A stretch of DNA of 64,000 bases from a bacterium (GTDB lineage Bacteria; Hinthialibacterota; Hinthialibacteria; Hinthialibacterales; Hinthialibacteraceae), in NCBI GenBank assembly GCA_963663405.2, contig CAXXSM010000141.1, forward strand, positions 1-64,000, given 5' to 3'. The first letter of the stretch is position 1. The number at the start of each line of letters is the position of its first letter. Shown here one piece after another: positions 11,925-60,435 of the stretch. A program made the position numbers and the translations under genes. The notes below the pieces were generated by a model. It was not told the DNA's origin. It searched no databases and saw nothing but the letters and a program-made list of their open reading frames with translations.

Positions 11925-11926
11925 TA

Positions 11927-13501: not shown

Positions 13502-13626
13502 TATTTATCCAAGAATGGAATAGGCACAATAGAACCTCAATAGAATTCAAAGAGACAAATACTACTGGAATCACTGAAATCGGATTCCCTTGTCATGGTG
13601 TTTGATTACAGGGGTTCTATTTCTCC

Positions 13627-25992: not shown

Positions 25993-25993
25993 T

Positions 25994-28497: not shown

Positions 28498-28501
28498 GGT
28501 C

Positions 28502-29014
28502 TTATCTCCTCGCCTGGCTCGCGCGATTTTCATGTTCTTGGTGGAGCTGCTCGCTCTCCTGCCGGGCCTGCTCTGAGCGTTGCTCGTGTTCGGTCAGGAA
28601 CTCGATATCCTGTTCCGCTGCCTCTCTGGCCCGTTCCAATTCGCCGCTGGCGTTGTCACTATGGATTGCCGATTGGGCGTCCGCTATTTTCGCTTGATCC
28701 ATCGTGGCGCTTTCTGAGCGTTCGTTCAGATCCGTCTCGTGTTCTTCCGTCTCTGAATGGACCTCTTCCAATTCGTGACTCTCCTCTTCGAATTCGCCGC
28801 CACTCACATCTTGCGCAGTGTCAATATTCTGCTCGATCTCGTCCGTTCCTTCCGCCGTGCCTCGCCGTTCCAACGCTTCCAGCGTTTCACGCTCCAATTC
28901 CAGGTCAGAAACCGTCAATTCAATCTCCTCTCCTTTGTCATTCATCTCATTCTGATGCAGGTCGACTGTGTCGGTCACTTCAATTCGGGTTGGCATATCG
29001 CTTCGGTTGTTCAT
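28502..29014 (-). CDS. Highly acidic coiled-coil protein
   Basis: E/D/Q-rich heptads; ATGA-coupled to the upstream ATPase. Confidence 0.7.
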   Translation of the reverse strand: MNNRSDMPTRIEVTDTVDLHQNEMNDKGEEIELTVSDLELERETLEALERRGTAEGTDEIEQNIDTAQDVSGGEFEEESHELEEVHSETEEHETDLNERSESATMDQAKIADAQSAIHSDNASGELERAREAAEQDIEFLTEHEQRSEQARQESEQLHQEHENRASQARR

Positions 29015-33292: not shown

Positions 33293-33360
33293 GATGTTCT
33301 CCTTTGCATGGGTAAAGATCCATCGTAAACAATGGTCTTGGATTCACACTTGTTTCGTTG

Positions 33361-33810
33361 TCACGATTCCGGCTTGCCGAGATACCGCGCGACCGGTTCG
33401 CCTGTCTGAAGATGCTGTTCGTAGGCCACAAGCCATAACCGGGCCATGAGAATCGCTTTGACGCAGGTGATCGACGCATCCCAATGGGATAGATAACAAA
33501 TTTGGACGACGCCGTTGGGCCCGTTCTCCAACGTGTGGAAATCGTGGGATGTGGAGAGCGAATTGACAGTCGCTTGGCCGCCAAAAAGCCGAAGAATCTC
33601 GGGTCGGATGATATACACCTTCGGTTTGCTGAAGGGAAAATCCAGTGGGAGAGGGATCATGACGGTGTAGTCCTGCGTTACCTGGGGCCCGTTGACGATC
33701 CCGGCGATATACGTGTTTTGGGTCCGGTCGTAAAACTTGAAATCGGGCATGTATTTTTGCAGTAATTTTTCTTCGATCGCCAACCGCGTTCTCTGTTGTT
33801 GTGTCCACAT
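33361..33810 (-). CDS. Ubiquitin-conjugating E2-fold protein
   Basis: RLAIEEKLL, Y.VMIPLPLDFPFSKPKVY, H...GVVQICY...W (catalytic Cys context), LW in the C-terminal helix; AAGGAG RBS. Confidence 0.8.
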   Translation of the reverse strand: MWTQQQRTRLAIEEKLLQKYMPDFKFYDRTQNTYIAGIVNGPQVTQDYTVMIPLPLDFPFSKPKVYIIRPEILRLFGGQATVNSLSTSHDFHTLENGPNGVVQICYLSHWDASITCVKAILMARLWLVAYEQHLQTGEPVARYLGKPES

Positions 33811-33868
33811 CGTTTAGGTTCTCCTTTACAAAGTTCATTTGGTGTACCTTCCCAAATGGGAATTGGAT

Positions 33869-34706
33869 TTAGGATTGCACGGCGCTCCACGGCCGCCAGA
33901 ACCTCGTTATTAGCGGCCGCAGTTTCGACCAGGTATCCACGTTGTGTTGGCGCGCCGCTTGGGCGTGAAGCCGTTCATAGAGTGTCCCTAGCCGGATCGA
34001 ACGGCCGTTCGCGCCATACGCGGAGGTGAGATCCCGCGTTTCATCGGTCGTGTTATCTTTGATAAGGATCTTGAGAATGGAGGCGGGATCGTTTTCCTTC
34101 AAACCAATCACCGCGATGTAAGAGGCTGTAATGGGGATGGTCAGGATCAGAAGGCCAAGACGCGCGCCCAATCTCAATCGCCTGTTGCGCCGATTCGGGA
34201 AGATCGCGAATTTGATTTGCCAGGATGTCATTCTCCACGCTTCGGTGATGAAATCGCTCTGTTGTGTCCGCGATCGATTCGCAGCGAATCCGTTCCATGG
34301 GCGCTTGCGGAACGTTGAGGAGCCAGGATGGCATAGCTGGAGAGAGTTCCTGGAGGCCAGCGCCGACCGCAACGGGCTCATTCCAGGTAAGACCCGGAGA
34401 GGCGTCCGTAAAGCCCGTCCCTGTTGTGGCTCGGGATACAGGAACGCGTTTATGGATACGGCGCTGGGTAGCCGAGCGTACAGCTGGTGGGAAAGAACCG
34501 GTTGTGGGCGCGGTTCCGTTCAAAACTGACGATAATATCGAGCCAGCGATCGATGTTGGGATTCCGGCGGGTAAGCGTCATAACCTGATTCAAATCGCCC
34601 CGGCTGGGCTCATTGGCGCCGGGATGGGGATGCGAATGCCAATCGCCAATCCACTCGATTCCAAATTCCGCATGGAAGAACTGGTTGGCGCGCAGGAAGA
34701 ACGCAG
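33869..34706 (-). pseudogene. JAB/MPN+ (Mov34) metalloprotease gene, 5'-truncated and frameshifted; absent from the ORF track
   Basis: My translation of 34704 to 34450 gives AFFLRANQFFHAEFGIEWIGDWHSHPHPGANEPSRGDLNQ (HxH..PS..D motif, HSH at 34638-34630). It continues by frameshift into INAFLYP...VLPGMSPLR. Confidence 0.8.
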
Positions 34707-35423
34707 ATTGAATTGTATTTCAGCGATCTGTTAAGCCAACTCGAGTTCCGGCGCGGATCGGAAAAAGAAACCTGGATCCGCGTCGATTTGGGATCCGGCG
34801 AACGCGAATACAAGATCCCCTTAGGCCGGAACGTCCTGTTCGTAGGCACGATGAACGAGGATGAGACCACTCATACGTTATCGGACAAAGTCATCGACCG
34901 GACCAATCTGATCGCCTTTCCACGGCCTCGTGTCCTTCAAAGCCGGGATACATTGACTCTCGCGGATGAACAAGGATTTTTGCCGTATTCGACCTGGAAA
35001 GGTTGGCTGGAGACGCCGGCGGTGTTGGATTCGGCGATCCGTGTCGAATACCGGCGGGCCATGGAAGAGATCAATGGGCGCCTGGCGCACACGGGGCGCG
35101 CGCTGGGCCACCGTGTCTGGCAGGCGGTGGAGAGTTATATGGCGAACCATCCCTATACGCGTCAAGCCGCTCAAGAGAACGATCCGACTCAGCTGAAGAA
35201 CGCCTGCCGGCTGGCGTTTGAAGATCAGCTCGTTCAAAAGATCATGCCGAAATTACGCGGATTGGAACTGGACCGTACCAATCGAAACGCCTGCCTGGAT
35301 CCCATCGCCGAGATCATCCACGAACACGCGAACGGTTTAACCGAGGATTTTCGCCAGGCGCTCGAATCCGGCCATGGAACCTTTGAATGGCGCGGCGCCA
35401 CGTACCTGGAGCGGGACGTATGA
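34707..35423 (+). pseudogene. C-terminal part of an McrB-like AAA+ GTPase (5'-truncated)
   Basis: IELYFSDLLS, NVLFVGTMNEDETTHTLSDKVIDR, QKIMPKLRG; Walker A/B absent upstream. Confidence 0.8.
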
Positions 35424-36800
35424 ACCAATCCACCACGCAGTCCATTCCGGTATGGAAGCGAACGATGCCCGGCTGTGAGGAACTCATCGCAATCGGCCAC
35501 GGCGCCGGAGCCGGCTGAGGAATACGTCTATTGGGCGTCCCTGCGGGTGTGTTCCCACATCTTCGCGTCCATCGCCAACTATGACGCCAACACGGGCCAC
35601 GGCGTTCCACAATCACTCCAGCAAGCGCTGCTCGTCCCTGGCCAATGAGATTAAAGATGAAACTCCATTGGTGATGGAGGACAACCTTCTCCGGGCGATC
35701 GACCTGTGTCATGAGCCGCTGAGAGACGATTCTCGCCAAACCCCGGAGTCAATTACGCCGCATGCACGCGCTGCGGCCGGTCTCACGGGTGCGGGAGATG
35801 GATACCCGGTGTATGATCTGGCTGGCGCGGCGCCCGGGCCGGACAGCTCGAGAGAAAACCGTGATGAACCGCCGTATTCTGGGCGTCCAACGGGAGCGAT
35901 CCTCGAACACGCTCGAAAATCAAGTCGCCCGCCGGGTTCTGCACGAGTTGCGCCCCCTGATCAGTCAGCGGCTTGCTTTTACTGACGTCAGTGAGAATCC
36001 TGTACAGAACGATCCAAGACTGAGCCAATTGCGATCCGCGTTCACGTTGTGCGGCGAACGGCTCCGGCGTTCCCCGTGGAACGAGATTGACTCCAGCGCC
36101 ATCCCGAAATCCAATAACGTCTTATTAAAAGATCCCTGCTACAAACGAGTCTGGAAAGTTTGGGAATGGCTGCGTCAGTATAACGAAGAAAACCAGCAGG
36201 CGTGGAAGACCGGCCCGCAACGCCTGACGTTGGCTGTGTTCTGGGTTCTTACGGCGCGGTTATACGATCGCGTCCCAACCGTGTTGTATGATTCGTTCTA
36301 TCAAATCGGGACAGGATTTGCGGGAGACTTTTTTGGCGCGCGGCGTGTGACCGGCGAGTCCAACGGTCAACCAGGCGGGGAGTCCCCATCAGTCCGTGTG
36401 TTGTGCGATCTGACGGAGCGGGGCAATCGCGCGTTTGAGATCAACATGCGTGTTAAAGATGGCCGGATCCTTGCGCGGGTATGGGTGTTGTCCCGATCCT
36501 CCTTTTCGATCAATCAACCGTCTCATTTGTACGAAATCGATTTGTCATTCCATTGGGATGAATCGAGAAGAGAAACACATGCGGCCCCATTGGCCGCTAC
36601 GTTGTATAAAAAATTCGAAACCGTTATGGAGCCGGGCGTTTCCCATCGATCTTAACGGGCTGCGGGAATTGGCGGATTCGATCCTGGATTATCTGTTTGG
36701 GCGGAAACTCGATCCCATTCCAGCTCCAGGCCAATCCGAACGCCCGTCGATCGTTCGAGTGACCTGGGCCTCGATCTCAGCGGTTCGATCCCCCGGTTAA
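35420..36800 (+). pseudogene. DUF2357/McrC-partner-like protein, fragmented by frameshifts
   Basis: VREMDTRCMIWLARRPG, NTLENQV, NNVLLKDPCYKRVWKVW; follows McrB with an ATGA overlap. Confidence 0.6.
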
Positions 36801-39419
36801 CGACGGAGCATGGTAATCCTGCCGTCCCCCCGTCTTTTATACGCCGCCTATTTTCCCTTATCGGCGAACGGCGGCGATTGGCTGCTGGGAAAGACTACTC
36901 GAATTCTGGATCCTTGGGAGAACTCATTCAAGACCGTCTCGTTTCAGCAGGCGTTCGATGAGTCCAGTGGACATCCGACGGAGCTGCGATTTCCACCGCG
37001 ATCCAGAGGATGTACAGCGGCCTGCTCGCCGGACAGAATGTGGCCGCGAACGTTCAAACGGCGTTGGCTATTCCCGACACATTGGATGAAATGGCGCAGC
37101 GATTCCTGCGCGCCGCATTGACCGCCCGGCAGGGCAAATCGTGGTTTGTGTGGCGCAGCGTCGCGGGCGCGCTGGGATGGCAAAAATCCGGCGTCGTTTG
37201 AAACGAGCGGTGTCCGCGAAGGAGACGTCGTCGTTGCGCTGGACGTGGAAGCGCCCGCGCTGACGCCCACCCGGCTTGTGGCGCGATACAGTCAAGACTT
37301 GAAAGGCACGCCGGCTTGCGGAATTTATTGGGAACGCAAGCCCCCCTTTGCAGCCGTGGGTCAAGACCTCCATCTCACCTATGAAGGCTTTTTAGCCGAT
37401 TTCTGCCGCCTGTCTCTCCAATTCGCGTACACGAACGTGAACGCCAGTCATGAAATCGAGATCCCCTCCCGCAACCAGCGGAATAGAATTATCGGTCATC
37501 TGATCGCTAGCGGGCAAGCCGAAGGGCTTGTGGAACGGGATCAGCCCCTCTGGCTGCCGCTGCGGGATGAAACTCACCCCCAGCGCGCGTGGTTCTGTTG
37601 CACGCCGCATCCGAAGGCCAAAGCGCGGACCGAGCAATGGTGGGGGGAGCGATTTGAACGATGGCTGCGCCGGTGGCGCCGGTCCAAGGGATTCTCGCAA
37701 ACCGTCGAAACTCCCAAGGGTAAACGGCTCCATTTTCTGTTCCTCGGCCGGCCGTTTCACCGGAAGGGGATTCAGGCGCAAGCGCGGCGGTTACTTGAAA
37801 CGTTCTTTCCCCAAGCGGCGTGTCACGTTCCCGAACCGGCCGCGTCGATCGTCTCGATGGGAGCGTACGCCTTTTTGGAACGGAACAAACAAGGGCTGGA
37901 GACGTGGGTGGATTGGATCCCGGACTTGTATCTCCAAATTCTACGGAACTCGCATCTCGATTTTATCAACATCTTTAAAGACCGCGCCGCGCGGCCGGGG
38001 GAATCGATTCACCGCACTGTCCCAGAGAGGTTTCAATTATCAGCAGGTGAACCCCGCTATCGTTTTCCCCTCACCCGCGAACCCAACAGCGCCTCCTCCC
38101 TATCCTGTAACGCGACACTTGAATCCCCCGCGTTTCCTCTCGATAAACCAGTGTTCGTGAAACTGGAAGTGGCGTATCGATACGGGGAAGATTGTTACCA
38201 TCTTCTCGTCCGGCCCGATCAGCCGGAATCCGCTCCATTCAAGCAGATCGAATTTACCTGGGCAAGAAATCGCAACGATCGATCCATCCCGCTGAAAGAA
38301 TGTGAGAATCTCGCGCCGGAATTCCCACCGATCCTGCCGTGGAACGCCAAGGAATTAGAACGATACATTGAATGGTTTATCAATGCCGCCGCCAAACTCG
38401 AACAAGAATGCCGGACTCTCTTTACGCCGGATGTTCATCGAATTCTCACCTTTGATTTCCTTCAAAAACGATTGAAGCGATTAGAAGAATTAATAATTAA
38501 AGTTCAAACTCCCTGTAAATCGTTGTGGGCGCGAGGCCGGGAGAAGACGGACGCGCCGGACCGCGTGCGAGCGGCTTTGGAAAACCAGGTTTTGTATTGG
38601 CTGGGTTGTTTGGGGGGACTCTCCCTCGATCCACTCATGCCTTTCTATGAACGGTATTCCGATCCGATTATTAACTCCTCCATGACGCAAATCAGGGAGG
38701 CGGCGTTAACCGCGTTGAGTTTCCTTCGATGTGAAGCGCCTCAAGAACTCGTCGTTCCAATACAGGAGAAAGGGAAGAATCCAAAAGAGTTGAAAAACGC
38801 TTTCCCGTTGTTAGCCCGCACAATTGGATCGGGGGAAGGCGATCGAAAGGATTTTCTCGCGTTTCTCATGGACGATCTCCGGCGCCGTGTGGAACACAAC
38901 AAACACGCCGGCCAGAAGAACCAACCTCGTCAACCGATGGCTCATCCATTATGGGCGATGGCGACGGCGTTGTGGAGCCATCCTGAATTCTGTTTTACGC
39001 TCCAGAATCATTCACACGTTCCCTTTATCTTCCAGCGGACGGCCCAGGTTTTGAATTATCTATCAAACGTCTTTGAAAAATCGGAACACAAGAAAATGGA
39101 CGAGAAAAAAATCAACGGGATGTTGTACCAGTTCCGCAGCGCCAATGAAATCCTTCTGGGACTCTTACGGCTGCGCGGCCGGGAAGGCGGGGACTTTTTT
39201 CGCGCGGGCACGCCGCGGATGGTTCAGTTGGCCGATCAAATCACGATTCTAGACGCTTGTTTTTGGCGATACGGCAAACGCTGTACCTCAAAATTGCAAT
39301 TTGAACTGCCCGATTCGTTCAAACAAGAGGGGCAATCTGAACTCACTTCTGTTTTGGTTTCTCTTCTCCGAGGAAGTGAAGGCGCTTCATTCATCAAGAT
39401 TGTGGACATTGATGAGTGA
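36760..39419 (+). CDS. Degenerate Hsp70/actin-fold protein with helical C-terminus, frameshifted; possibly fused to the DUF2357-like part
   Basis: DLGLDLSG (~36761), ALAIPDTLDEMAQ..L..A, WRSVAGALGW, FLFLG and VSMGA correspond in order to Hsp70-like motifs. Confidence 0.5.
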
Positions 39420-39445: not shown

Positions 39446-40612
39446 TTGAAAACAAGGAATCACCGCCATATGAAGATGGAATGGGAGACACTAACGTCAC
39501 TGGACAGGGTTCAACGGGTATACCGGCGCCATTCGATTGTGGATTTGATCCGTTCGATCGCCCTGGAATCCGACGAGCGCGCTCTCAGTGAGTTGCACAA
39601 TCACCGGCGCGTGTTTCATTATCAGGATAACAGGCCGCTGCGTCTCGTTGAATTCATCGGCGTTCTGCGCCAGCGCGCTCCCCTCGAATACTCGAACGCC
39701 GTGGATCAAGCGTACGATCTAACGGTGGATAAATTCAGCCATCTGCCCTCTCTGGATCCCGCAACCGGGCGCCGGTCTGACGGTCGAAGCGGTCCGGATT
39801 GCCGGTATTATTTTAACGCGTTCCTGGATTACGTTGCCAAAGTGAGACATAAGAACGGTCCGGTAAACCCCATCCAGGAAGAACGGTTATCGGAATCGGT
39901 CTTGCAGGGATTGGTATGCAGGCATTTTCAACTCTCCCTCTTGGAATCCAGCCGGAATGCGCAGCGGCATATTACGAAATACGAATGGCGAGTGAATGGG
40001 GACATCCTCCGGTTATGGTTTCCCGCGCGACTGCGAGGGAAAGACCGGCGGACCTGGCTGGAGAATCATGTTGATTCGCCCGATCCTTCCAAGCCCTCTG
40101 AACGCGCCCGCATACAAGCCATCATCAACCAGTGGTTCAATATCCTTCCTATGCCTTCTGAGCCTCTTTCTGAATTCCTCCTTCTTCCGGATGAACGGCC
40201 CGCGCTTTTAGCAGCGGCTCAGGAAATTCCGGTCAGGGGATTCGCGAAAGCGGTCGCGCGGGAGAAAGCGCTGCATATTGAGAAACAGCGCCCTTCCATC
40301 CAAGCCTTGGGCCCGGACGACCTGGAACAACTGGTGTTGCGCATCTTTAACGATCTGAACAGGAATGAGTTTAACGCGTCCAAAATCGCCCGGGAATTTA
40401 ATTTGAATGAATCCACCCTGAATCGATTCGCCAAAATGAAATGGGATGAATCCACGCCCGAAGCTGGGATTCCCGATCTCTGGCTCAATGCCGCTCAGAC
40501 TCTCTGCGCCCATCCACTGTTCATCGAAGCGGCGCAGGAGGCGGGCGTCTGGGATACCGTGAACCAAATCCAGCAGTGGATCCCTCCCCGGAGAGATTAT
40601 CATGGCCAATGA
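39446..40612 (+). CDS. Sigma-factor-like / HTH regulator
   Basis: N-terminal DLIRSIALESDERALSELH (ECF region 1.2-like) and C-terminal ASKIAREFNLNESTLNRF HTH. Confidence 0.55.
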   Translation: MKTRNHRHMKMEWETLTSLDRVQRVYRRHSIVDLIRSIALESDERALSELHNHRRVFHYQDNRPLRLVEFIGVLRQRAPLEYSNAVDQAYDLTVDKFSHLPSLDPATGRRSDGRSGPDCRYYFNAFLDYVAKVRHKNGPVNPIQEERLSESVLQGLVCRHFQLSLLESSRNAQRHITKYEWRVNGDILRLWFPARLRGKDRRTWLENHVDSPDPSKPSERARIQAIINQWFNILPMPSEPLSEFLLLPDERPALLAAAQEIPVRGFAKAVAREKALHIEKQRPSIQALGPDDLEQLVLRIFNDLNRNEFNASKIAREFNLNESTLNRFAKMKWDESTPEAGIPDLWLNAAQTLCAHPLFIEAAQEAGVWDTVNQIQQWIPPRRDYHGQ

Positions 40613-41248
40613 GATGTTTTTTCTGCCTTTACTCGCCAACGCGCTGGAACAGAAGGACGCAAAGAACGCCTTGTTGAAAGCGTTTGAAGAGATTCAAGCG
40701 CGTGGCCAACAAGAGGCGTACCGGGATGGGTATCGGCAATTTCAATCATTTCATGAAACACGTCCAGGAATACGCCGATCTTGAGACGACGGCTGAATTC
40801 AAGGATGAAACATACATCTTCAAGCATCTCTTGTATGGACCCGATGGGCCGGCCGGTCTGAAAAAATGGTTGGATGAGTTTGAATCAGCGGAGGGAAGAA
40901 TCCCCTATCCAACGCTCCTTCTAATGAAAGATGAGAAGTGAACTGAAACGAATTCCATTGGATCAGCAAGGCGGACGTTGGACGATCGATAACTTGCAAC
41001 CGGGGTTCTACGCGCTCTCGTTTGATACTGGGCGAGTGATTTGGGAAGGCGAATTGACTAAAAACGATCTGCTCTGGACTCTTGCGTTTCCCGGGCAGGA
41101 TTTACCCTTGGCGGCGGATACTGGAGAGGAAGCCATCCAACCAAGCCGCCAATTTCATCTTCTCCAAGGAGAGATCGTCCTGAACGTCTATCCCGGCCTT
41201 GAATCCGGCCGGATTAAACTCCTCATGAACAGACCGAGTGGGAATTAA
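40602..41248 (+). CDS. Hypothetical protein (possible anti-sigma partner), split in three ORFs by frameshifts
   Basis: ORFs 40602-40784, 40684-40941 and 40931-41248 overlap sequentially; beta-rich C-terminus with LAADT. Confidence 0.45.
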
Positions 41249-41251
41249 ACC

Positions 41252-42936
41252 ATGAAAAAGAATCCACAATCCATCGGCCGCGCCAAGACCGTCCTGGTGT
41301 TTCACCACGGTGGAGAGACCACGGCGGCGATCACCTCCGTAATCGCGCAAGTCACGGAGGAAGCCCAGGAGGAACGAATCCAGATCGTGGGACCGGCCGG
41401 TTTCGATCCCAAACTCGTCACGCATCTCCACCGGATTATTCTTCCTCTTGTGGATACCATTGCAGCCGCCCTTCAGCTACCTCAATCCCATTTCACTCTC
41501 TCCGCCGTGAATCTAGGCGCGGCGTCTTCCTCGGATATTGGGTTTTCTGTTTCGGGCTACTCCGCCGACGCGCCCATCTTCCTGGCTCTCTTGTCCGCCG
41601 CGCTCCAACTGCCAATCCGCCAGGACGCGGTCTCCACCGGCCACATTGCGTCCACGGCGGGAGACATCGCGTTCGTCAGTTCCATCCCAGCCAAGTTGGA
41701 CGCGGTTCTGCGCGATGATTCTCTCCATGCGTTTGTCTATCCAGAACCCACAGGGGATTCGTCCCTGGAACGCTTAGCGCCACAAAAGAGACAACGGGCG
41801 GAAGACGCGCTCACCGCCGCCAAGGGGAAGGTGAAACTGCGTCCCGTTTCCAACGTCACTGAATCTTCTGCAAGCCATGTGCAGTGATGAGGCGGTGATA
41901 CAAGCGAGCCTCGCCAGCGGTTTCTTTACTTCAGAGCATACACCCGAGCTGAAACACACGTCCAATCCCAGCCTAGTTGGAATTTCTTCTTCACGATCAC
42001 GAGACTCGTTTCTGGTCATCGTTGGAACGGAATTTCTTGGAACAGAACATCGACCAGGCCCGGGACCTTCTTCAAGCCCGGATGCGGTTTCATGTGGAAA
42101 CGAATACTTACCCGGAAGCGTTTGGGATCCGGCTGCTGCGGCTGATTCAATCCCTTCCACCGTATATCCGCCGTCTGAAGGCCTTTTATCCCTTAGCGCC
42201 GATTTCCAGCTGCATCCAGTTGGGGCAGTCTGCGGATGAAAAGGAAGCAAGGGATGTCCAATGGCTGATCAAAGCGGTCACGGGAGATGGAATCGGCGTT
42301 CATGACAAGAAAGAACGGGATGACGATCGCCCCCCCGAAGACACAACCGAACAAGGACAATCAATCCTGGATTCGATCCTCGATCGAATCAGTGAAAAAC
42401 AACTGACCGAATCCATCGCCATCCCCGCCGATTCCGCCCTCGTATCGTTTACGCTGGATCGCTCTGTCGTGGATTCCATCGAAGAATTCAACCGGATTCT
42501 CTACTCCTTCTACCTTCATCTCCAGCGGCATACACACTCGATTCCAGTGATTCTCGATGAAGATCAAGCGGGCGCGGACGCGCAAGACCTGCTCGAACAG
42601 ACCTTCGGCGCCCACGGTGGCGTCAAAGCCGCCCATGCGGAAGCGCTCGATGGATGCAAAGGGGGAATTCGATGGGTATTGGAGCATATCACAAACCGGT
42701 ATAAGCAAAAAGAAAAGGAGAAATGGGTGAATAAAATTTTCAAAGACGCGCTGGATCCAATGCAATGGGAAGAGAAAGTCCGGCTTATCGAGGTTCTCCT
42801 CAAACGGCTGGCGCCTTTTCTCCCACCCGATATTCGGGATCAGCCGCCGGAACGGTTCGCCCTTCACACCGAAATCCTGGTGCAAGCGTACGTGCAATCC
42901 CTTGACCAGTTCATGTATAAAATTCGTTCTTTATAG
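41252..42936 (+). CDS. Lon-type (S16) Ser-Lys protease-like domain fused to helical-domain paralog A (frameshift ~41860-41980)
   Basis: SVSGYSADAPIFLALLSA...STGHIASTAGDIAFVSSIPAKL matches the Lon-C G.SA...TG.I...G....V.....K pattern. The C-terminal ~190 aa are homologous to 43071, 43672 and 46901. Confidence 0.65.
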
Positions 42937-43070
42937 GACGCAACGTTAAAAACGGGAATCGATCGTCGATATCCTTGGATCTCGATGTTGAGAACTATTC
43001 CATCGAATAGATGGGCTTACGTTTCTATTGTTGTTTTTTTATAACCGCCATAACGGCTACGAAAGGAAAA

Positions 43071-43655
43071 ATGATGACCAACATTAACACTCTTCTCAAC
43101 ACCCTTGATGAGCGAACCATCGCGCAACGCGTCTCCATCCCCCACGATGAGGTTCGGATGCGGTATTCTCTCCAATCCAACACGGTCAGGGATTTTGATG
43201 AATTCAGCGATGTGATTGCGGAGTATTACAATACACATTTCACCGCTTGTGTCTCCAACGGGGGGAATTTATCCCGGGCGGAGGCGTTCGGGCGCGCCAA
43301 AGAGATCCTCATCCAGAACTACCGGCGGCGAAACGGCGATATCGTCACCGCGTACAACGACGCCCATGATGGCACGAATGGCGGTTTGAACGCGATCCTC
43401 AATACCATCGCGGAAGCCTTGAAAGCCAAATCCGTGGAAACCTATATCGAGAACGCCTTCGATCGGCATGTCTCACCCAATCAATGGGAACAGAAAGTGG
43501 AGATCATCCGCCAGTTCATCGAAAAATTTCATCATGTTTTGGGGTCGAATATCCAGGCCCATCAACCGGAGCGTTACGCCCAAAATTATACGGAATTGAT
43601 CCAGTCGTATGTGAATGCGCTGCAGCAGACCTCGTCTGTCTTCCGGCGCTTGTGA
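43071..43655 (+). CDS. Unknown all-alpha protein, paralog B
   Basis: AAGGA RBS; shares LL..L.E, IP.D, EF, G..GG, P..W..K and PER motifs with the paralogs. Confidence 0.8.
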   Translation: MMTNINTLLNTLDERTIAQRVSIPHDEVRMRYSLQSNTVRDFDEFSDVIAEYYNTHFTACVSNGGNLSRAEAFGRAKEILIQNYRRRNGDIVTAYNDAHDGTNGGLNAILNTIAEALKAKSVETYIENAFDRHVSPNQWEQKVEIIRQFIEKFHHVLGSNIQAHQPERYAQNYTELIQSYVNALQQTSSVFRRL

Positions 43656-43671
43656 ATCGGGAGAAATCAAC

Positions 43672-44250
43672 ATGAAAAGCAAACTCGATCGATTATTGGA
43701 CAGCCTCGATCCCTCGGTCACTTCCGATGAAACCGGGAACCGGATCAACCACGCCCTGAATACATTTCCTTTGGAAAAAGGACGGATCACAGACTGGGAC
43801 GAATTCAAGGATTGGATCGCCCGATTCATCTGCCATGCGGAGAATACGCTTTTCAAAGTGAAATCCCGCCGAGAGGCCCACCCTGACTATGATTGGAATC
43901 ATGCGTACCGGTTGCTCCAAGAGGTATATGGACGCAATGGAGAAAAAAAGGCGTTCGAGATGGCTCGAAAAGGCGTGGAGGGAGGCGTGTACGCGGTGTT
44001 GAAAGCGCTGGCGAAACAATTGGTAAACGAATACTCGCAGAATGAAATCGCCGCGAAAACGCACACCTTTTGGAATCAATTGACGGTCGAGGAACGATTG
44101 ACCGCCGGGGAGGAGTTTCTGGTGAAATTTGGTCATCTGCTGCCGTCCGAAATGACCGAAGGCAGCGGCGCGCGGATCCGGGCGAATCTCCCGCAAGCCC
44201 TCATCAAATACCCCGAACTCCTCCAAAAACTGCGGCGATCCGTTCGCTGA
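43672..44250 (+). CDS. Unknown all-alpha protein, paralog C
   Basis: GGAG RBS; LDRLLDSLD, DWDEF, KAFEMARKGVEGGVYAVL. Confidence 0.8.
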   Translation: MKSKLDRLLDSLDPSVTSDETGNRINHALNTFPLEKGRITDWDEFKDWIARFICHAENTLFKVKSRREAHPDYDWNHAYRLLQEVYGRNGEKKAFEMARKGVEGGVYAVLKALAKQLVNEYSQNEIAAKTHTFWNQLTVEERLTAGEEFLVKFGHLLPSEMTEGSGARIRANLPQALIKYPELLQKLRRSVR

Positions 44251-44279
44251 TTTTTTTTTTGATTTTTTCTTCCGTTTCG

Positions 44280-44306
44280 TGAAATGTTCTCCGGTTTCTT
44301 CCCGCT
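44280..44306 (+). promoter_or_regulatory. Recurrent motif TGAAA-N10-TTTCTTCCCGCT, copy 2
   Basis: Intergenic, upstream of the VirD4/HerA-like ATPase. Confidence 0.65.
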
Positions 44307-44454
44307 TTACTTCTAGAGTGGTTTGCAAAAAAACGTTCGTTTAAGCGGTCCGGAAAATCCAAAAAAACCTGGATTTTCCAGATCGGAACGCGCTCTCAAT
44401 CCGAATATAGTTTTGGAAACCGCTATAAAAACAGATTGCAAAGGGGAAGAACCG

Positions 44455-46920
44455 ATGTCATCGATCGAAGAAACGCTGATCGCGCAGGCGCGGCCGTATA
44501 TGCTGGCCGCCAAGGCCCAGCTGGCTGCGCGGGATGAAATCACCAAAGGGTGTTTGCCGGATGTCCACCTTCAACCGGTCGCGTTGGAACCGGCGTTTCG
44601 TCCGATTCAAGGCTCACAGAATTATCTTCAGGATGAACCATCCTCCTCCGGCGTGGTCTATGAGACCGCGCCCCAGATTCAAGACCTTACCCGGTTCGCG
44701 GTGTGGCTCTCCCCGGAACAGGCGTTCGATTGGCGCCGGCCGGAAACGTTCCTCAAACACCTGTATTCGGTTGGACGCCGCATCGGATTTGAAATCTGGA
44801 GCGCCAATGGGAAGATCAATTTTTCCATCCTCTGTCACCAAGAAGATCAACCTCTGTTATCCGCCGCGTTCCGGGGGCAGTATGAGCGCTGCCGGCTCAC
44901 CCCGCAAGAGCGGAATCCATTGACGGATTTGTCCTTGGACGCGTGGGAGAAGGCGGAGTTTTATGACTTCTATCCGCCGCCGCCGTACAGCCATCTGCTC
45001 ACCCGGCCGGAAGAATTCCAGGATTCGCCGTATGAATCTTTGCTTACGATCCTCTCTGAAGTTCCCTCCACCGTTCTTTGCCAGGTGCTCTTTCAACCGG
45101 TTCATCCCGCGAACAATTGGCATCGGAATGTGGAGATACTATTGGATCTGGAGTATACCGTCAAACTGATGGGGGATAGCCAATATCCACAGCGCTGCAA
45201 ACAACATGTCCCGTCCGGTGATTTGCGGCATATGGCCGTTGAAACGGAGATCAAGGCGCATAATGACAAGCCTTTTTTCACAACCGCCGTCCGTCTTCTG
45301 CATATCCCCCAATCCGAGGTGGAAGAGATCCCCTTAAACGCCATGGCCACGTTCATGAGTCTCTTTCAACATGGGGGACGGCCTCTTAATGTAGTCACCG
45401 AGATGGAGTATAAATCCCGCTTATCTTCCGATCAAATCAAGCAGATGTTTGTGACGGGAATGACCTACCGGCCGGGATTTCTTCTCAATTCCAGAGAACT
45501 GGTCGGGTTGGCCCATTTTCCCTCCGCGGACGTGTTGATCGCCCGGGAGATTCCCATCGAAACGCTGGAACCCCTGACGCCGAAAACCGATGATCTGTCC
45601 GAAGGGACCAAGATCGGGAAGCGCCGGTACACAGGCCAAGAGCTTCCGGTTCATATCCCGCCAACCATCCGGGCGTGCCACACGCATATCATTGGCAGCT
45701 CTGGTTATGGCAAATCGACGTTACTGGAAGGAATGAGTCTGGATGATATTGCGCATGGCAAAGGAATCGCCGTGCTGGATCCGCATGGGGATTTAGTGGA
45801 ACGGCTGCTGTGTTTGATTCCTGAGAGGTGTATAGAACGCGTGATCTATTTCAATCCAGGAGATCCCGATTGGGTTCCCCTTTGGAATCCACTGTCGACT
45901 TTGCCCGGGCAGGATTCGGCCCGGACCAGTGACGATCTGCTCAACGCGTTCAAAAAAGTCGTCTCTGGATGGGGAGACCGGCTGGAGCATCTTCTCCGCA
46001 ATTCGTTTTACGCGCTGCTTGAATTGACTGGGAAGACCTTGTTCGATGTGTCGAACCTTCTGCAAAGCAATTCCGTACAAAGCCAGAAACTGCGCCATCA
46101 AATTCTTCAGGTTGTGGAAAATGAAACCGCGAGACAATTCTGGTTGAATGATTTCGATCAATACCGGCGGGATGATTTCAGCCCTCCCAAGCACAAACTG
46201 GGGAAACTGCTGCTGGCGGGAACGGTTTCGCTCATGCTGTCCCAGCCCGAAAATCGGTTTCATCTCCGTTCCGTGATGGATGAAGGCATGATCTTTCTGG
46301 CGAATGTATCCACCATCGGTTCCGAAATCCGCGAAATCCTGGGGTGTTTTATCTTATCCCTCTTTCATATCTCCGCCCTCAGCCGGGGAGATCTTCCGCA
46401 GGAAGACCGGAGACCGTTCCACATCTACTGTGATGAAGCGCACCGGTTTATGACCGAGTCGATTGAGGATTTCATCGCGGAAACACGGAAATTCCGAGTC
46501 AGCCTTACCCTGGCGCATCAGTTTCTGAGCCAATTTGGAACGAAAAAGATGAACGCTCTCGCCAACGCCGGGTCGTCGATCTTTTTTAACATGGATAGCA
46601 AGGAGGCGCAGTTTTTCGCCCGCAGTCTTCAAGGCCGTGTATCCCCCGATCAGTTGCATTCACTGGACGTGGGCTGCGCGATCGCGCGGATTGGGAAAGA
46701 GATTGTCCGCGTGGAGACGCCTATAAATAAGCCGATTCCCGAACGGCATTTCAGAGAAGAGATTATTGCTCTCTCACGGCGCAAGTATTACAAGCCCGTC
46801 AATGAAATCCGGAATTTGATTCGTAACCGGTATCACAGCGCCGCGCCGATCAAAACGGTCGCCGTGAACACGGTCGAAAAAAGCGGCAGGAAGAAAACCT
46901 ATGATGAAATATTGCGCTGA
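44455..46920 (+). CDS. VirD4/TraD/HerA-like ATPase without obvious TM segments
   Basis: HTHIIGSSGYGKST, LDPHGDL, YCDEAH, ETRKF, LAHQFLSQ. Confidence 0.88.
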   Translation: MSSIEETLIAQARPYMLAAKAQLAARDEITKGCLPDVHLQPVALEPAFRPIQGSQNYLQDEPSSSGVVYETAPQIQDLTRFAVWLSPEQAFDWRRPETFLKHLYSVGRRIGFEIWSANGKINFSILCHQEDQPLLSAAFRGQYERCRLTPQERNPLTDLSLDAWEKAEFYDFYPPPPYSHLLTRPEEFQDSPYESLLTILSEVPSTVLCQVLFQPVHPANNWHRNVEILLDLEYTVKLMGDSQYPQRCKQHVPSGDLRHMAVETEIKAHNDKPFFTTAVRLLHIPQSEVEEIPLNAMATFMSLFQHGGRPLNVVTEMEYKSRLSSDQIKQMFVTGMTYRPGFLLNSRELVGLAHFPSADVLIAREIPIETLEPLTPKTDDLSEGTKIGKRRYTGQELPVHIPPTIRACHTHIIGSSGYGKSTLLEGMSLDDIAHGKGIAVLDPHGDLVERLLCLIPERCIERVIYFNPGDPDWVPLWNPLSTLPGQDSARTSDDLLNAFKKVVSGWGDRLEHLLRNSFYALLELTGKTLFDVSNLLQSNSVQSQKLRHQILQVVENETARQFWLNDFDQYRRDDFSPPKHKLGKLLLAGTVSLMLSQPENRFHLRSVMDEGMIFLANVSTIGSEIREILGCFILSLFHISALSRGDLPQEDRRPFHIYCDEAHRFMTESIEDFIAETRKFRVSLTLAHQFLSQFGTKKMNALANAGSSIFFNMDSKEAQFFARSLQGRVSPDQLHSLDVGCAIARIGKEIVRVETPINKPIPERHFREEIIALSRRKYYKPVNEIRNLIRNRYHSAAPIKTVAVNTVEKSGRKKTYDEILR

Positions 46921-47503
46921 CTCGATTTTAGATGACCTGCTGGAATCCCTCCGGGAAGACCGCGTCCGTGCGGCGATCGAAATTCCGATCGATCGCTCGG
47001 CGGAATGTTATAATTTCCCCGCGCAACCACCTCTCACGTATCATCAACAACTTCATCAGCTGGCCGATTTCGTACGGCATATTTACGCGAATGGTTTAAC
47101 GCTGCCACGGATCCTGAGTCCGGAGCAAGCCTGCGCCGAAACCATCGATCTGTTGGAGAGAGGGTATCAGGGATCAGTATCCAATGGATTCGCCGCCGCA
47201 ATGGAGGACGCCAGGAATGAAGGGCGCCGTGGATTTGAGTTCTTGGCCTCGCAAATAGCCGAATTGATCAAAGTCAATCGGAAAGATCGATACATCCGTT
47301 GGATTTTCGCTAAACACCTTGATCCGTGTGATTGGCGAACCAAACGTGAATTGGTAGAAATCCTTCTGCGCCGGTTGAAGCAAGTCATTCCCATGCGGCT
47401 CAAAGATCGTTCTCCCGCGCAATTCGTCGAATTCATCCCTTCATTGATCCAACTCCATTTACAGACCAGCCGTTTACTCGATCAGGTCTATTCAAAAAAA
47501 TAG
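46901..47503 (+). CDS. Unknown all-alpha protein, paralog D
   Basis: LDDLLESLRE, IEIPID, HLDPCDWRTKRELVEILL, SPAQF. Confidence 0.8.
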   Translation: MMKYCADSILDDLLESLREDRVRAAIEIPIDRSAECYNFPAQPPLTYHQQLHQLADFVRHIYANGLTLPRILSPEQACAETIDLLERGYQGSVSNGFAAAMEDARNEGRRGFEFLASQIAELIKVNRKDRYIRWIFAKHLDPCDWRTKRELVEILLRRLKQVIPMRLKDRSPAQFVEFIPSLIQLHLQTSRLLDQVYSKK

Positions 47504-47609: not shown

Positions 47610-48638
47610 ATGATCGCGCCAAACAATCAATTCAAGACAAATGAAAAAGTAAAGATTTTTAGAAACCGTTTTTCAGGATTGAAAAATGTGTATGGGACTT
47701 ACGATCCGAAAACCAAGCGGTGTTGTGTCATCAAACAACCGGTGACCGGCAAGGTGTTGACCCAGCATCTGAAAGGAACGCGGCCGTATGGAGTGTTTCT
47801 GCTGATGGGTGATCGCGTCCGTGCTATCGCAGCCGACTTTGACCATTTGGATCCTGACCCCATCGTTCAATTCGTTCACCGCGCTCAGCACTATCTAATC
47901 CCCGCGTATGTCGAGGTTAGTAAATCCAAAGGATTTCATGTATGGATTTTCTTCGATGAACGAGGCGTTCTCGCCGCAAAAGCGCGAATGGTGATCCAGC
48001 ACATTCTCCAAGAAATTGAATGCCCGGACGTCGAAGTATTCCCCAAACAGGACCGGCTCAATTCAGCGAATCAATACGGCAATTTCATCAACGCGCCGCT
48101 TTTCGGTCAGTTAGTACCACAAGGGAAAACCGTTTTTATTGATCTAAATGATTCGTTTCACCCCTATCCAGACCAATGGGATTTTCTTGCAACGATTGAT
48201 CCTGTTCCCGAATCTGTTCTCGATGAAACGATCGAGATGAACGATCTCAGACCACAAAACGATATATCGAAGCCTATTTCTATTGCTACACAAAAATCTT
48301 TTGCCTTGCCTCCTTGCGCCCGGGAGATTCTCGATCAAGGAGTATCTGAGAATCAACGCGTCGCCTGTTTCCGGTTGGCTGTTCACCTCAAACGAATCGG
48401 CTTTCCCTTTGATATAGCGATGGTGATCCTGAAAGTGTGGTCCCTGAAAAACCGGCCAGTCAATGGAAAACAGAGAATCACAGACCATGAAATCAAGTCG
48501 CAAACCCAATGGGCCTATGAGAAAGAGTATCGCGGTTACGGCTGCGGGGAGCCTGTCATCAAATCATTCTGTTCCAAAGATTGTCCTTTGTTTCAAAGGA
48601 CACAATCCAATAAAACCGGAAAGGAAAAAGCATCATGA
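47610..48638 (+). CDS. Archaeo-eukaryotic primase (AEP, TOTE-like catalytic domain) with Cys-rich PriL-CTD-like tail
   Basis: ADFD, SKSKGFHVW, EVFPKQ, GNFINAPL; tail LPPC...GYGC...FCSKDCPL. Confidence 0.82.
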   Translation: MIAPNNQFKTNEKVKIFRNRFSGLKNVYGTYDPKTKRCCVIKQPVTGKVLTQHLKGTRPYGVFLLMGDRVRAIAADFDHLDPDPIVQFVHRAQHYLIPAYVEVSKSKGFHVWIFFDERGVLAAKARMVIQHILQEIECPDVEVFPKQDRLNSANQYGNFINAPLFGQLVPQGKTVFIDLNDSFHPYPDQWDFLATIDPVPESVLDETIEMNDLRPQNDISKPISIATQKSFALPPCAREILDQGVSENQRVACFRLAVHLKRIGFPFDIAMVILKVWSLKNRPVNGKQRITDHEIKSQTQWAYEKEYRGYGCGEPVIKSFCSKDCPLFQRTQSNKTGKEKAS

Positions 48639-48919: not shown

Positions 48920-49100
48920 TAGAAAGAAATTGGGACAGAGAGCGCTGCCTTCAACAGTTAAATGAGTGAAGATAAGCGGCTTTGACTTTCTTTACTCATT
49001 AGGAAATGAACGGATGAATTAGTAAGAGAACAATTTGGGATTTTCCAGTCCTATGGCTGGAAAATCCCAAGTCCTCGTAAATAAAAAGGTGATTTCAAAA

Positions 49101-49364
49101 ATGGACGCGCATGAAAAAATCAATCTTGAGGAAATGTTGACAACAAACGAAGTTGCCGCCATCTTAAAGAAACATCCTGTTACGATTCGGCGTATGGTGA
49201 ATCGTAAAAAGAATCCTCTTCCATGCCGAAGAATCGGAGGTACTTTGCGCTTTTGGCCGCAGGAAATCAATGACTGGATTGAACGGCATGGAACATCAGG
49301 TAAAGAAGTGTCTCAATTCATAAGGAGTAAAAAGCATGTCTTGGGTGAGATCGCGAAAATCTAA
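49101..49364 (+). CDS. Excisionase-like HTH_17 protein
   Basis: MLTTNEVAAILKKHPVTIRRMV...RIGGTLRF...I.DWI; overlaps the integrase start. Confidence 0.8.
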   Translation: MDAHEKINLEEMLTTNEVAAILKKHPVTIRRMVNRKKNPLPCRRIGGTLRFWPQEINDWIERHGTSGKEVSQFIRSKKHVLGEIAKI

Positions 49365-50598
49365 AGCATCCCCTTCGGGGAAAAATTGGTACTATTGTTA
49401 TAGGGACCAAGGCAAAATTGAAACAAGAAGAATTCCAAATGCTTTTACAAGGGAGCAAGCGGAACTTATTCAAAAAGAATGGGATGAATTGTTATCAACA
49501 TCTCAAGTCGAATTGAGCGTAACATTTGAGGAACTTGCTGGCGCACTGATAGCGGCGGATCAAAATGCCGATTTAAGTCCTCGTTATATAGAAGAAAAGA
49601 AACGCTATTTTAGAAAATCACTATTCCCCTTTTTGGGGAGAAATACTCTGGTGAAAGAAATCAAAATTGGTCAAATCAAAGATTGGATCACTTCTCGTAA
49701 ACGTGATTTTGGAAAAAAGGGGGGGAAAATTAAGGATTCAACGATCAAGCATGAGTTTTACACACTGTCCGCCACTTTTGCGCTTGGATTCGAGCGAGGT
49801 ATTCTACAAGAAAACCTGTGTAAGAAAATCGTCTTGAAACGGTTATTGAATAATGGTGAAACAGCAAACAAAACCGCTCTTTCTATCGAAGAGATTCAAC
49901 ATCTAATTGAATCGGCGGAGAATCACACAAAACTTTTTATCCAAATCGCGGCTTGCACGGCTGCTCGAAAAGGCGAAATACTCCAACTTCAGTGGGAAGA
50001 TATCGATTTTAAAGAGAAAACGATCACTTTCCGACATGATCCTGAAAACGGCCAAAGGATCAAGTCAAAACGTACTGTAACACTCCCAATAGGATCTTAT
50101 TTGATCGATGCTTTGAAAAAAGCGAAATCTGACACCATAGGACCATGGATCTTTCACCATCCGGATGGTTCGAGAATGTTAGATGTAAAACGGAGTTTTT
50201 CAACGGCGGTAAAGCGAGCGGGTTTAGGCGCCAACGTCACTCCCCATATCCTTCGACACAGCGTAAATACGATCTTAATGGAGAAACATATTCCTCAAAG
50301 TGATGTCAGAGATTTCCTGAGACACGCTGATTTCAGAATGACATCACATTATGGTCATAGTCGAGAAGAAAGACTTCGGTCAGTCGCTGAATCGTTGAAT
50401 TTCGATCGTCGTGTGAGCGAAAGTCCGAAACTGGTACAGCAGGTTGCTACACCAAATGCTGTACCAGACGAAAATTTGAAGGAAATTTTGAGCAAAGTTG
50501 CAACGATTTTAGATACTGTAAGTACTGTAGAATCAATGAGTTGTTGGTTGGAGCGGGAGACCGGGATCGAACCGGCAACCCTCAGCTTGGAAGGCTGA
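49336..50598 (+). CDS. int: Tyrosine recombinase/integrase
   Basis: ARKGEILQLQWEDID, KSK, PHILRH, LRHADFRMTSHY catalytic residues. Confidence 0.95.
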   Translation: MSWVRSRKSKASPSGKNWYYCYRDQGKIETRRIPNAFTREQAELIQKEWDELLSTSQVELSVTFEELAGALIAADQNADLSPRYIEEKKRYFRKSLFPFLGRNTLVKEIKIGQIKDWITSRKRDFGKKGGKIKDSTIKHEFYTLSATFALGFERGILQENLCKKIVLKRLLNNGETANKTALSIEEIQHLIESAENHTKLFIQIAACTAARKGEILQLQWEDIDFKEKTITFRHDPENGQRIKSKRTVTLPIGSYLIDALKKAKSDTIGPWIFHHPDGSRMLDVKRSFSTAVKRAGLGANVTPHILRHSVNTILMEKHIPQSDVRDFLRHADFRMTSHYGHSREERLRSVAESLNFDRRVSESPKLVQQVATPNAVPDENLKEILSKVATILDTVSTVESMSCWLERETGIEPATLSLEG

Positions 50599-50625
50599 TG
50601 CTCTGGCCAGTTGAGCTACTCCCGC
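50549..50625 (-). tRNA. tRNA-Gly(TCC), probable integration site
   Basis: Reverse complement GCGGGAGTAGCTCAACTGGCCAGAGCATCAGCCTTCCAAGCTGAGGGTTGCCGGTTCGATCCCGGTCTCCCGCTCCA folds as a cloverleaf with TCC anticodon and encoded CCA. Confidence 0.97.
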
Positions 50626-60393: not shown

Positions 60394-60435
60394 TTAATCA
60401 CTCCATTTCAATTCAAGCAAATAGAAAAAACAAAG

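Follow-up and report, generated by a model that had tools for sequence, protein, structure and literature searches.

A conserved block of four paralogous helical proteins, a Lon-type protease and a VirB4-like ATPase in a predicted integrative element from the Hinthialibacteraceae

The stretch of DNA analyzed here, referred to as the window, comprises 64,000 nt of contig CAXXSM010000141.1 (GCA_963663405.2) from a member of the Hinthialibacteraceae. At positions 41252-47503 it encodes four diverged copies, A to D, of one protein domain together with a large ATPase, ATP1; copy A is the C-terminal part of a protein with a Lon-type protease domain, Lon-A. Judged by its gene order across phyla, this block belongs to an integrative mobile element, a context which, like the VirB4-like identity of ATP1, the original prediction for this locus had missed. 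The block and the gene preceding it are composed as follows.

40602..41248, plus strand: homolog of a 227-residue gene preceding Lon-A, recognized by tblastn in two frames; two open reading frames (ORFs) in the window
41252..42936, plus strand: Lon-A, spread over three frames in the window; consists of a Ser-Lys protease domain of Lon type (41252-41887), a middle domain and the A domain
42349-42936, plus strand: domain of paralog A, C-terminal part of Lon-A
43071..43655, plus strand: paralog B, 194 residues; BLASTP, ortholog alignment and AlphaFold2 (AF2) model
43672..44250, plus strand: paralog C, 192 residues; BLASTP to B and A; a single clade in the tree
44455..46920, plus strand: ATP1, ATPase; ORF open from 44323, orthologs begin at 44455; TrwB_AAD_bind 1.3e-5; VirB4-like N-domain model
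46901..47503, plus strand: paralog D, 200 residues; BLASTP to A and B; start overlaps the ATP1 stop by 20 bases

Comparisons are based on a survey of 84 loci, four from genomes and the remainder the best 80 of 234 metagenome matches; L005, a short partial match, was excluded. The genome of the window is denoted G000, and G001 is a complete Desulfarculia chromosome whose loci are L002 and L009.

BLASTP relates the C-terminus of A to B (4e-26), A to D (8e-24), B to D (1e-12), B to C (2e-12) and A to C (1e-7). These five pairs align over the full length of about 190 residues, and the pair C-D alone reaches no significance. The proposal of four paralogs similar along their whole length thus holds for five of the six pairs, and the motifs quoted in its favor are present in the translations. 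The starts at 43071 (B), 43672 (C) and 46901 (D) fit the ortholog alignments, in which mean column identity amounts to 73% for B, 59% for C, 58% for ATP1, 54% for A and 47% for D, B being the most conserved protein of the module. A quick maximum-likelihood tree was computed for 119 domains, made up of 28 from every paralog and seven further D from loci without A-C. In it, the four form separate clades with branch supports of 96 (A), 98 (B), 100 (C) and 96 (D, including the additional seven). Since each falls into its own clade, A-D are, by this tree, old paralogs with fixed positions and not recent duplicates.

The family is large. A profile of A-D, compared with 1.84 billion representatives of clusters at 50% identity, retrieves 1904 proteins at E<=1e-3, 1387 at 1e-10 and 248 at 1e-30; the relatives of B alone amount to 1120 clusters. 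Two main size classes are apparent, one of about 193 residues and one of about 560 residues with the domain at the C-terminus, and 52 of 150 proteins among the matches listed measure 530-600 residues. None of the 120 relatives of B among the matches listed carries a Pfam domain, and the only name given by the sources is 'hypothetical protein'. A-D themselves have no match in Pfam, NCBIfam or PADLOC. In PHROGs, A, C and D likewise find nothing, and B is marginally similar to phrog_28567, a family of unknown function (E 5.2e-4, residues 98-151).

An AF2 model of B, built from 62 sequences, consists of nine helices (pLDDT, the predicted local distance difference test, 95.5). Foldseek finds nothing in the PDB at E<=0.001 (best 1.3), and VIA-align against 48,161 PDB chains yields a best Z of 6.0, under the tool's background for helical proteins. 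The best E is 0.96 for the model against BFVD and 0.21 for the family profile against PDB sequences; in the ESM Atlas the best score, 0.81, is reached by shuffled proteins too. An unknown helical domain outside the characterized families had been proposed, and these searches agree with it: the A-D family lacks a name, and among solved and viral structures the modeled fold of B has no clear counterpart. For B, an active site of Fic type was considered because of a motif resemblance and rejected, as the motif is not in A, C or D and the Fic fold is absent from the top matches. The median isoelectric point (pI) of the paralogs ranges from 5.25 (D) to 6.9 (C). They are acidic to neutral and therefore not basic DNA-coating proteins.

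Within the window, the fusion of A to the protease is interrupted. The Lon-like ORF (41252-41887) closes with two stops, the ORF containing A (41977-42936) lies in a different frame, and the ortholog alignment places about 35 residues absent between them in the third frame. The orthologs are single proteins of about 560 residues, and Lon-A of G001 is one ORF of 580 residues. Logan contigs from four public runs (X1-X4, three studies), with a depth of only about 3 and from best-matching runs that may be the window's own sample, were aligned to window positions 40600-44300. At about 41860-63, and at about 40746-48 in the 227-residue homolog, the contigs of all four runs have one base fewer than the window. 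The same applies at about 41976-79 to X1 and X2 (X3 covers the site without a gap, X4 has no depth), and at about 40936-39, again in the 227-residue homolog, to X1, X2 and X4 (no gap in X3). All four checked single-base sites coincide with frameshifts of the window, and one Logan contig is otherwise identical to the window across 1530 bases. No RNA data set was listed among the public runs that contain the sequence. Because public contigs lack the extra bases, Lon-A is most likely one gene in the organism, its fusion real and its split an indel artefact of the window assembly. This assembly probably contains single-base insertion errors, so that other split genes may be artefacts as well. That the window copy is a decaying, pseudogene-ridden relic was considered and rejected, the four checked frameshifts being bases missing from the public contigs.

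A profile of 33 Lon-A proteins matches 1xhk in the PDB at 5.8e-9, along with 45 further Lon/RadA chains, and archaeal LonB and human LONP1 at about 2e-7. The Lon ORF of the window reaches 1.4e-4 to 5e-3 against the NCBIfam Lon models, far under their cut-offs. Of 86 aligned Lon-A proteins (34 taken from the loci, 52 representatives), 81 retain the Ser-Lys dyad, which the window shows in the motifs GYSAD and PAKL; four of the others have Ser/Ser and one Tyr/Glu. The single-ORF orthologs, the profile match and the conserved dyad bear out that paralog A is fused to a Lon-type Ser-Lys protease, which, to judge from its residues, is probably active. While profile similarity to the proteolytic domain and the dyad are common to Lon-A and the Lon proteases (MEROPS S16), Lon-A differs in having no AAA+ module and no match to a P-loop family. 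Its protease domain stands at the extreme N-terminus, beginning at about residue 9, and is joined to a middle domain of about 170 residues and to A.

ATP1 had been taken for a VirD4/HerA ATPase, of which the affiliation with the FtsK-HerA superfamily stands. It scores 24.5 bits against Pfam TrwB_AAD_bind (cut-off 20.5; DUF87 stays under its cut-off), and none of the 51 orthologs departs from the Walker A lysine K464 or the Walker B residues D704/E705. The VirD4 part is not upheld. The N-terminal 391 residues, modeled by AF2 with 51 orthologs (pLDDT 82.5), match TrwK/VirB4 of plasmid R388 (PDB 7o42) in VIA-align with Z 15.1 and a root mean square deviation of 3.8 over 252 residues, and in Foldseek with E 2.5e-5 and probability 1.00. 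The second-best match, a chain of the ESX-3 complex, has Z 7.9, within the tool's background. Because its N-domain model matches TrwK/VirB4, ATP1 is, as far as the model goes, VirB4-like in both domains and not VirD4-like. The cut-off of the NCBIfam model VirB4_CagE (TIGR00929) lies at 643.1 bits, and ATP1 scores 20.1.

Membrane segments were scanned for with Kyte-Doolittle profiles (19-residue windows, threshold >=1.6) in 25 proteins of the window and 16 of G001. No such segment occurs in ATP1, in the four paralogs or in most other proteins of the element, and ATP1 shows no VirD4-type N-terminal transmembrane anchor, in good agreement with the soluble ATPase originally described. Marginal values of 1.63-1.74 were obtained for ATP2 (a second large ATPase of the element, see below), the ORF 33869-34381, and the JAB protein and Lon-A of G001. 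Pfam detects none of the type IV channel families VirB3/6/8/10 in the window, L002 or L009. As the proteins of the element have no convincing transmembrane segment, we conclude from their sequences that it encodes no channel.

Among the ATPases of type IV secretion and conjugation, VirB4 alone is universal, and it serves as a marker for conjugative systems. ATP1 shares with it the two-domain build, the fold of the N-domain and a TrwB/VirB4-type P-loop domain with invariant Walker residues. It differs in having nearby neither VirB3/6/8/10-like proteins nor any convincing membrane protein, in scoring far under the NCBIfam cut-off, and in its neighbors, which are four soluble helical paralogs.

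The genes around this block complete the right-hand module of the element.

39446..40612, plus strand: conserved 388-residue protein; orthologs 35-40% identical in L001-L003; possible C-terminal helix-turn-helix (HTH)
47610..48638, plus strand: AEP primase-polymerase (AEP-TOTE / CRISPR-associated PrimPol type); Pfam AEP-TOTE 4.8e-33, NCBIfam PrimPol_Msp 3e-24, PADLOC PrimPol 1.3e-29
49035..49364, plus strand: excisionase-like HTH protein; Pfam HTH_17 5.1e-11; equivalent position in L037 and L002
49336..50598, plus strand: tyrosine recombinase (integrase); Pfam Phage_integrase 1.2e-27, phrog_1 1.2e-57
50549..50625, minus strand: tRNA-Gly(tcc) (ARAGORN), where the element ends on the right; the 3' end of the tRNA gene points towards the integrase ORF and overlaps its terminus

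The 388-residue protein had been called sigma-like. It is conserved, but it yields only a weak match to HTH_28 (E 0.082) and none to a PDB sequence, which leaves that designation unsupported. At the other side of the module, a recombinase adjoins a minus-strand tRNA gene in the window, L002, L037, L041 (here a serine recombinase), L069 and L102, and 10 of the 40 scanned loci have minus-strand genes for tRNA or tmRNA (transfer-messenger RNA) 3' of the module, as do L002 and L004. By these arrangements the unit is an integrative mobile element which inserts at the 3' ends of tRNA and tmRNA genes. Pfam and NCBIfam searches of the window and L002 detected neither a relaxase nor a membrane-anchored translocase nor mating-pore genes; in L076, ATP1 is preceded by a Replic_Relax gene. 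Further cargo of some elements includes ParA and a serine in place of the tyrosine recombinase. In L076, L098, L102 and L106 (about 14.1-16.5 kb each) a class II ribonucleotide reductase with a TSCPD domain is found between primase-polymerase and integrase, an unusual cargo for a non-viral element.

Across phyla the conserved order reads 375-residue gene, 227-residue gene, Lon-A, B, C, ATP1, D, AEP, excisionase (not always present), recombinase, ending at a tRNA or tmRNA gene, and the block is conserved at 45-70% identity. In G001 all genes of the element point in a single direction: JAB, E2, E1 (ThiF), ATP2, genes of 169 and 221 residues, WD40 and a Ser/Thr kinase with TPR are followed by the 375- and 227-residue genes, Lon-A, B, C, ATP1, D, AEP, HTH, integrase and tRNA-Thr, beyond which housekeeping genes begin. 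The window contains every gene of the G001 element. In all 69 loci whose sequence extends 750 bases or more past ATP1, D follows it. Upstream of ATP1, among the 47 loci with at least 2.3 kb on that side, 35 have at least three paralog domains, three have two and nine have none; in one of these nine, L086, Lon-A, B and C occur inverted downstream, and three others (L046, L048 and L052) resemble one element. The gene order announced by the original prediction is therefore a conserved one. Of the 26 loci whose upstream flank spans the full 10 kb, 17 show ATP2 there.

Short forms of the element exist as well. In L037 and L046, housekeeping genes are followed directly by ATP1, D, AEP, an HTH_17 gene in some cases, and an integrase (Pfam assignments), making up compact elements of about 6 kb. 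Such loci were considered as the ancestral form, a view rejected on the grounds that in the quick tree their D nests inside the D of full elements. In L063, ATP1-D-AEP-integrase comes after a MORN-repeat gene, a RecD2-type helicase, hypothetical ORFs and an MCM helicase; the MCM and RecD2-type helicases (L063 296-8692) may be part of the short element or of a neighboring one.

Hosts belong to the Planctomycetota, the Desulfobacterota and the window's own small phylum. In the latter, 11 of 35 species genomes contain the family: five of the 11 have four matches, G005 has five, G000 ten, and the rest one or two. G000 has a second copy of the module on contig C1, with A in an open frame of 564 residues, B whole, and C and D as partial matches, and module fragments on contigs C83 and C28.

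The left-hand module (24421-34665) is divergent from the right-hand one in the window, a 4.7-kb insert bearing DUF2357 lying between them.

24421..26061, minus strand: Ser/Thr protein kinase with C-terminal extension (TPR in the G001 ortholog, a 537-residue gene), last gene of the left module; Pkinase 1.9e-31, PADLOC mad6 2e-46 and PD-T4-6
25994..27871, minus strand: WD40 beta-propeller, 625 residues; tblastn to the 621-residue WD40 gene of G001 1e-54, weak WD40-type Pfam matches
27868..28533, minus strand: 221-residue low-complexity/coiled-coil protein; place and size as the 221-residue gene of G001, no family match
28502..29014, minus strand: 170-residue acidic coiled-coil protein; tblastn to the 169-residue gene of G001 1.7e-11
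29011..32019, minus strand: ATP2, second large FtsK-HerA P-loop ATPase; tblastn to G001 ATP2 E 0.0, 41% identity; PADLOC mad8 1.4e-12, HerA 1.6e-7
31800..33059, minus strand: E1-like (ThiF-type) adenylating enzyme; PADLOC E1-E2 2.8e-25, tblastn to G001 ThiF 1e-103
33361..33810, minus strand: E2-like protein; tblastn to a 153-residue gene of G001 1.1e-27 at 33400-33789, window ORF without Pfam match
34352..34665, minus strand: JAB-domain gene fragments in two frames; tblastn to the 375-residue JAB protein of G001, frames -1 and -2
34713..39419, plus strand: non-core insert (236 residues; DUF2357, 297 residues; 103 residues; 757 residues), not at this place in G001 and L103

The divergent arrangement recurs in L055, L057, L074 and L103. 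ATP2 aligns with ATP1 in the ATPase domain only (hhalign, probability 93%, E 3e-7). In G001, ThiF scores 7.2e-33 and JAB 9.4e-10 (PADLOC), and the E2 protein is recognized weakly by UQ_con (0.029) and by PADLOC E2 (1.9e-4). With the bacterial E1/E2/JAB conjugation operons, the element has in common that E1 (ThiF), E2 and JAB stand together in G001 and in the window, where JAB is fragmented, perhaps by an indel of the assembly as at the sites near Lon-A. No gene for a ubiquitin-like (Ubl) substrate was recognized, no search by fold having been made. An association of the paralog block with a JAB/E2/E1 operon had been suggested. In the window and G001 the two are parts of one unit, and beside ATP2 the set recurs in L076 and, as E1 alone, in L092; it is not found between ATP2 and the 375-residue gene in L103. 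The co-occurrence is thus, from gene neighborhoods, real and not universal, and the flanks covered by the survey under-sample it.

Within the insert, the 236-residue protein matches PADLOC PDC-M26A at 3e-9 and DUF2357 scores 3.4e-11, the 757-residue protein being without a family; the insert is possibly defense cargo. The GC content rises at about 24 kb, where the left module begins. Just left of this rise, a 52-base direct repeat (22023-22074 and 23702-23753, 81% identity) flanks about 1.7 kb.

What the paralogs do can be proposed only tentatively. As a possibility which we put forward with reservation, they would be hetero-oligomeric partners of a soluble motor that serves the element's own DNA. 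The coupling of the genes, the overlap of D with the ATP1 stop and a model of A-D together point to a complex formed on the motor. This model, in which B is the partner chain, comprises the A domain, B, C and D, with an ortholog alignment of 28 rows for every chain. Its interface score, ipSAE, is 0.32, 0.53 and 0.45 in the single runs (median 0.45) and 0.00 in three controls; partner pLDDT is at least 81, contact agreement between runs at least 93%, and the scoring tool, whose calibration jobs differ from such a four-chain model, grades it as 'weak support'. The hetero-oligomeric assembly of the original prediction is retained in this weak form (0.45 against a best control of 0.00). Two of its further specifications lack support: against a filament, shell or nucleocapsid stand the pI values of 5.25-6.9, the missing viral fold match for B and the missing ATP1 relative in IMG/VR, and against translocated substrates stands the fact that no channel or membrane protein is encoded. 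That the motor would serve the DNA of the element is suggested by the short forms, which otherwise hold only replication and integration genes.

The sequence of events could be imagined as follows. D, which would be translationally coupled to ATP1, would be joined by A, B and C, where present, in a hetero-oligomeric cytoplasmic complex. The ATPase ring would receive this complex at its VirB4-like N-domain, where the membrane partners VirB3/VirB8 sit in type IV secretion. The Lon-type Ser-Lys protease fused to A would cut itself or the paralogs and thereby bring about maturation or switching, and the motor would act on the excised DNA of the element, in replication with the primase-polymerase, in partition or in hand-over. 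In large elements, JAB/E2/E1, ATP2, WD40 and the kinase may regulate complex or motor. The complex itself, its docking place, the targets of the protease and DNA as the substrate are the conjectural parts of this scheme. Elsewhere, a primase-polymerase has been described to bind the helicase encoded beside it (PMC11724360).

Several observations weigh against the proposal that the paralogs assist a motor acting on the element's DNA. According to the scoring tool, complexes with a score in the observed band prove wrong more often than right unless a strong prior speaks for them. About eight loci, some being copies of a single element, do without A-B-C. Because the D of short forms nests within the D of full elements, these forms may be deletion remnants and not working minimal elements. 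Direct repeats of at least 13 bases that could be attachment (att) sites are absent from 12 loci (window, G001 and ten others), the flanks being limited and the cores possibly short, and none was found in the window with mismatches allowed; the left ends of the elements are therefore undefined. None of the 80 metagenome loci lies on a circular contig. The E1, JAB, kinase, HerA-like ATPase and AEP-TOTE families are typical of defense systems. To our knowledge, no VirB4 acts without a membrane channel or serves replication.

The strongest competing explanation is a conflict system, directed against phages or plasmids and carried on a small integrative element. VirB4/HerA-like ATPase rings would scaffold helical sensors or effectors, the Lon-type protease would release or activate them on infection, and E1/E2/JAB together with kinase and WD40 would regulate the response. 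The PADLOC matches are in line with it: besides E1-E2, the JAB of G001 and the kinase (mad6, PD-T4-6) listed above, both ATPases, ATP1 included, match the mad8/HerA models. So are the AEP-TOTE / CRISPR-associated type of the primase-polymerase and the patchy distribution among relatives. Proteases fused to a partner are a common theme in defense modules (PMC12642450). Yet Lon-A and the 388- and 227-residue proteins, like A-D, match no PADLOC model, and the block remains constant across phyla, together with recombinase and primase-polymerase, at the identities given above. Defense cargo usually varies between related mobile elements. Moreover, ATP1 and D are the sole extra genes in short forms beyond those for replication and integration, and are therefore suggested to serve the element itself. 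We regard the defense explanation as rather doubtful, if worth serious consideration.

TOTE conflict systems, named after TPR, OB, TBP and Effector (PMC12458937, citing Aravind, Iyer et al. 2022), share with the element the AEP-TOTE domain of the primase-polymerase. They differ in that Pfam reveals neither a TPR-cold-shock (CSD/S1) fusion nor a TATA-binding protein in the element.

An unrecognized temperate virus is a less probable source of the genes. ATP1 would package DNA, A-D would be parts of a virion or nucleoprotein, forming a helical shell or coat, and the protease would act in maturation. FtsK-HerA ATPases reportedly package DNA in some viruses, as Iyer et al. 2004 are said to have set out. 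ATP1 matches phrog_5156 (1.8e-30) and, weakly, a protein of Bacillus phage G, and the integration at tRNA genes and the class II ribonucleotide reductase of four elements would fit a virus too. By Pfam and PHROGs, however, no capsid, portal, terminase or tail family is present in the window or L002, though a new type of capsid would escape this search. Among 2.9 million IMG/VR contigs there is no relative of ATP1, queried as single sequence and as alignment, and BFVD offers no match for the model of B. The N-domain of ATP1 is VirB4-like and not of the packaging-ATPase type, the acidic to neutral paralogs are unlike DNA-coating proteins, and forms without A-C exist. We hold this explanation to be improbable.

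Finally, it is very improbable that the paralogs are secretion substrates or chaperones of an analogue of type VII (ESX) or type IV systems, with helical pairs exported after serine-protease processing, since the ESX-3 chain, to which the N-domain of ATP1 is second most similar in fold, stays within the background of the tool and the lack of convincing transmembrane segments leaves no channel, even if the cast of components parallels ESX loci as described in PMC1779556 (FtsK-like or FtsK-family ATPase, paired, paralogous alpha-helical proteins, serine protease, ubiquitin-like or ubiquitin-related protein, Ser/Thr kinase). Further differences from ESX are the Lon-type instead of a subtilisin-type protease, E1/E2/JAB instead of YukD, and the lack of any WXG100/PE/PPE relation among the top fold matches of the model of B; WXG or signal features were not noticed either, no search aimed at them having been made.

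For the preferred reading, a soluble motor with hetero-oligomeric partners acting on the element's DNA, a close known parallel is given by actinomycete integrative and conjugative elements (AICEs) such as pSAM2, which have a recombinase, a primase-polymerase replicase and an FtsK-type DNA translocase. The short form, ATP1-D-AEP-(Xis)-Int at a tRNA gene, resembles them in combining integration, replication and one motor of the FtsK-HerA superfamily. It differs in that ATP1 is VirB4-like without a membrane anchor and in its hosts, the Planctomycetota, the Desulfobacterota and the phylum of the window. We know of no counterpart of the helical paralogs, the Lon fusion or the E1/E2/JAB set in AICEs. 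In the literature on VirB4 with JAB/E1/E2, or on VirB4 with primase-polymerase, integrase and Lon, no description of this layout was found, judged by titles and abstracts and with supplementary neighborhood tables not covered.

A bolder version goes further, to a new DNA-mobilizing apparatus in which a membrane-free motor of VirB4 type works with a four-paralog helical assembly of unseen fold, matured by the fused Lon-type protease and gated by ubiquitin-like conjugation and the kinase. The elements would then constitute a new class of their own among integrative elements, possibly particle-forming or transmissible from cell to cell, in Planctomycetota, Desulfobacterota and neighboring phyla. 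We consider this unlikely. A large VirB4-like family that is without a membrane partner and tied to four unannotated paralogs and a Lon-type protease would be a new use of the motor by a mobile element, and marker-based scans for conjugative elements may miscount such loci. With a short form of only about 6 kb and a clear gene arrangement, the elements lend themselves to direct tests of excision, replication, transfer or packaging, and defense.

Several further features of the window lie beyond the two modules. Directly past the tRNA gene, and outside the element, a 757-residue protein of beta-lactamase fold (PF00144, 2.6e-7) is encoded at 50906-53179. An Orc1/Cdc6-type AAA+ protein (2455-3726; Cdc6 C-terminal winged helix 2.8e-21) is probably part of another mobile element; other genes of the window genome (MutL, IS21, tRNA structure) look bacterial. 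Positions 8420-15609 hold a MoxR-type AAA_5 ATPase, a CobT/vWA protein, an ArdC-like antirestriction protein and a DUF87/TraG-like ATPase (13627-15609), the last of which is 23% identical to ATP2 over 356 residues (9e-20). An IS21-family pair, with IstB at 1e-75 and the rve integrase in pieces, occupies 17025-19003. At 60350-60889, tandem units of 45 bases, in about 9-12 copies that are up to 98% identical, abut the gene at 60824-61933.

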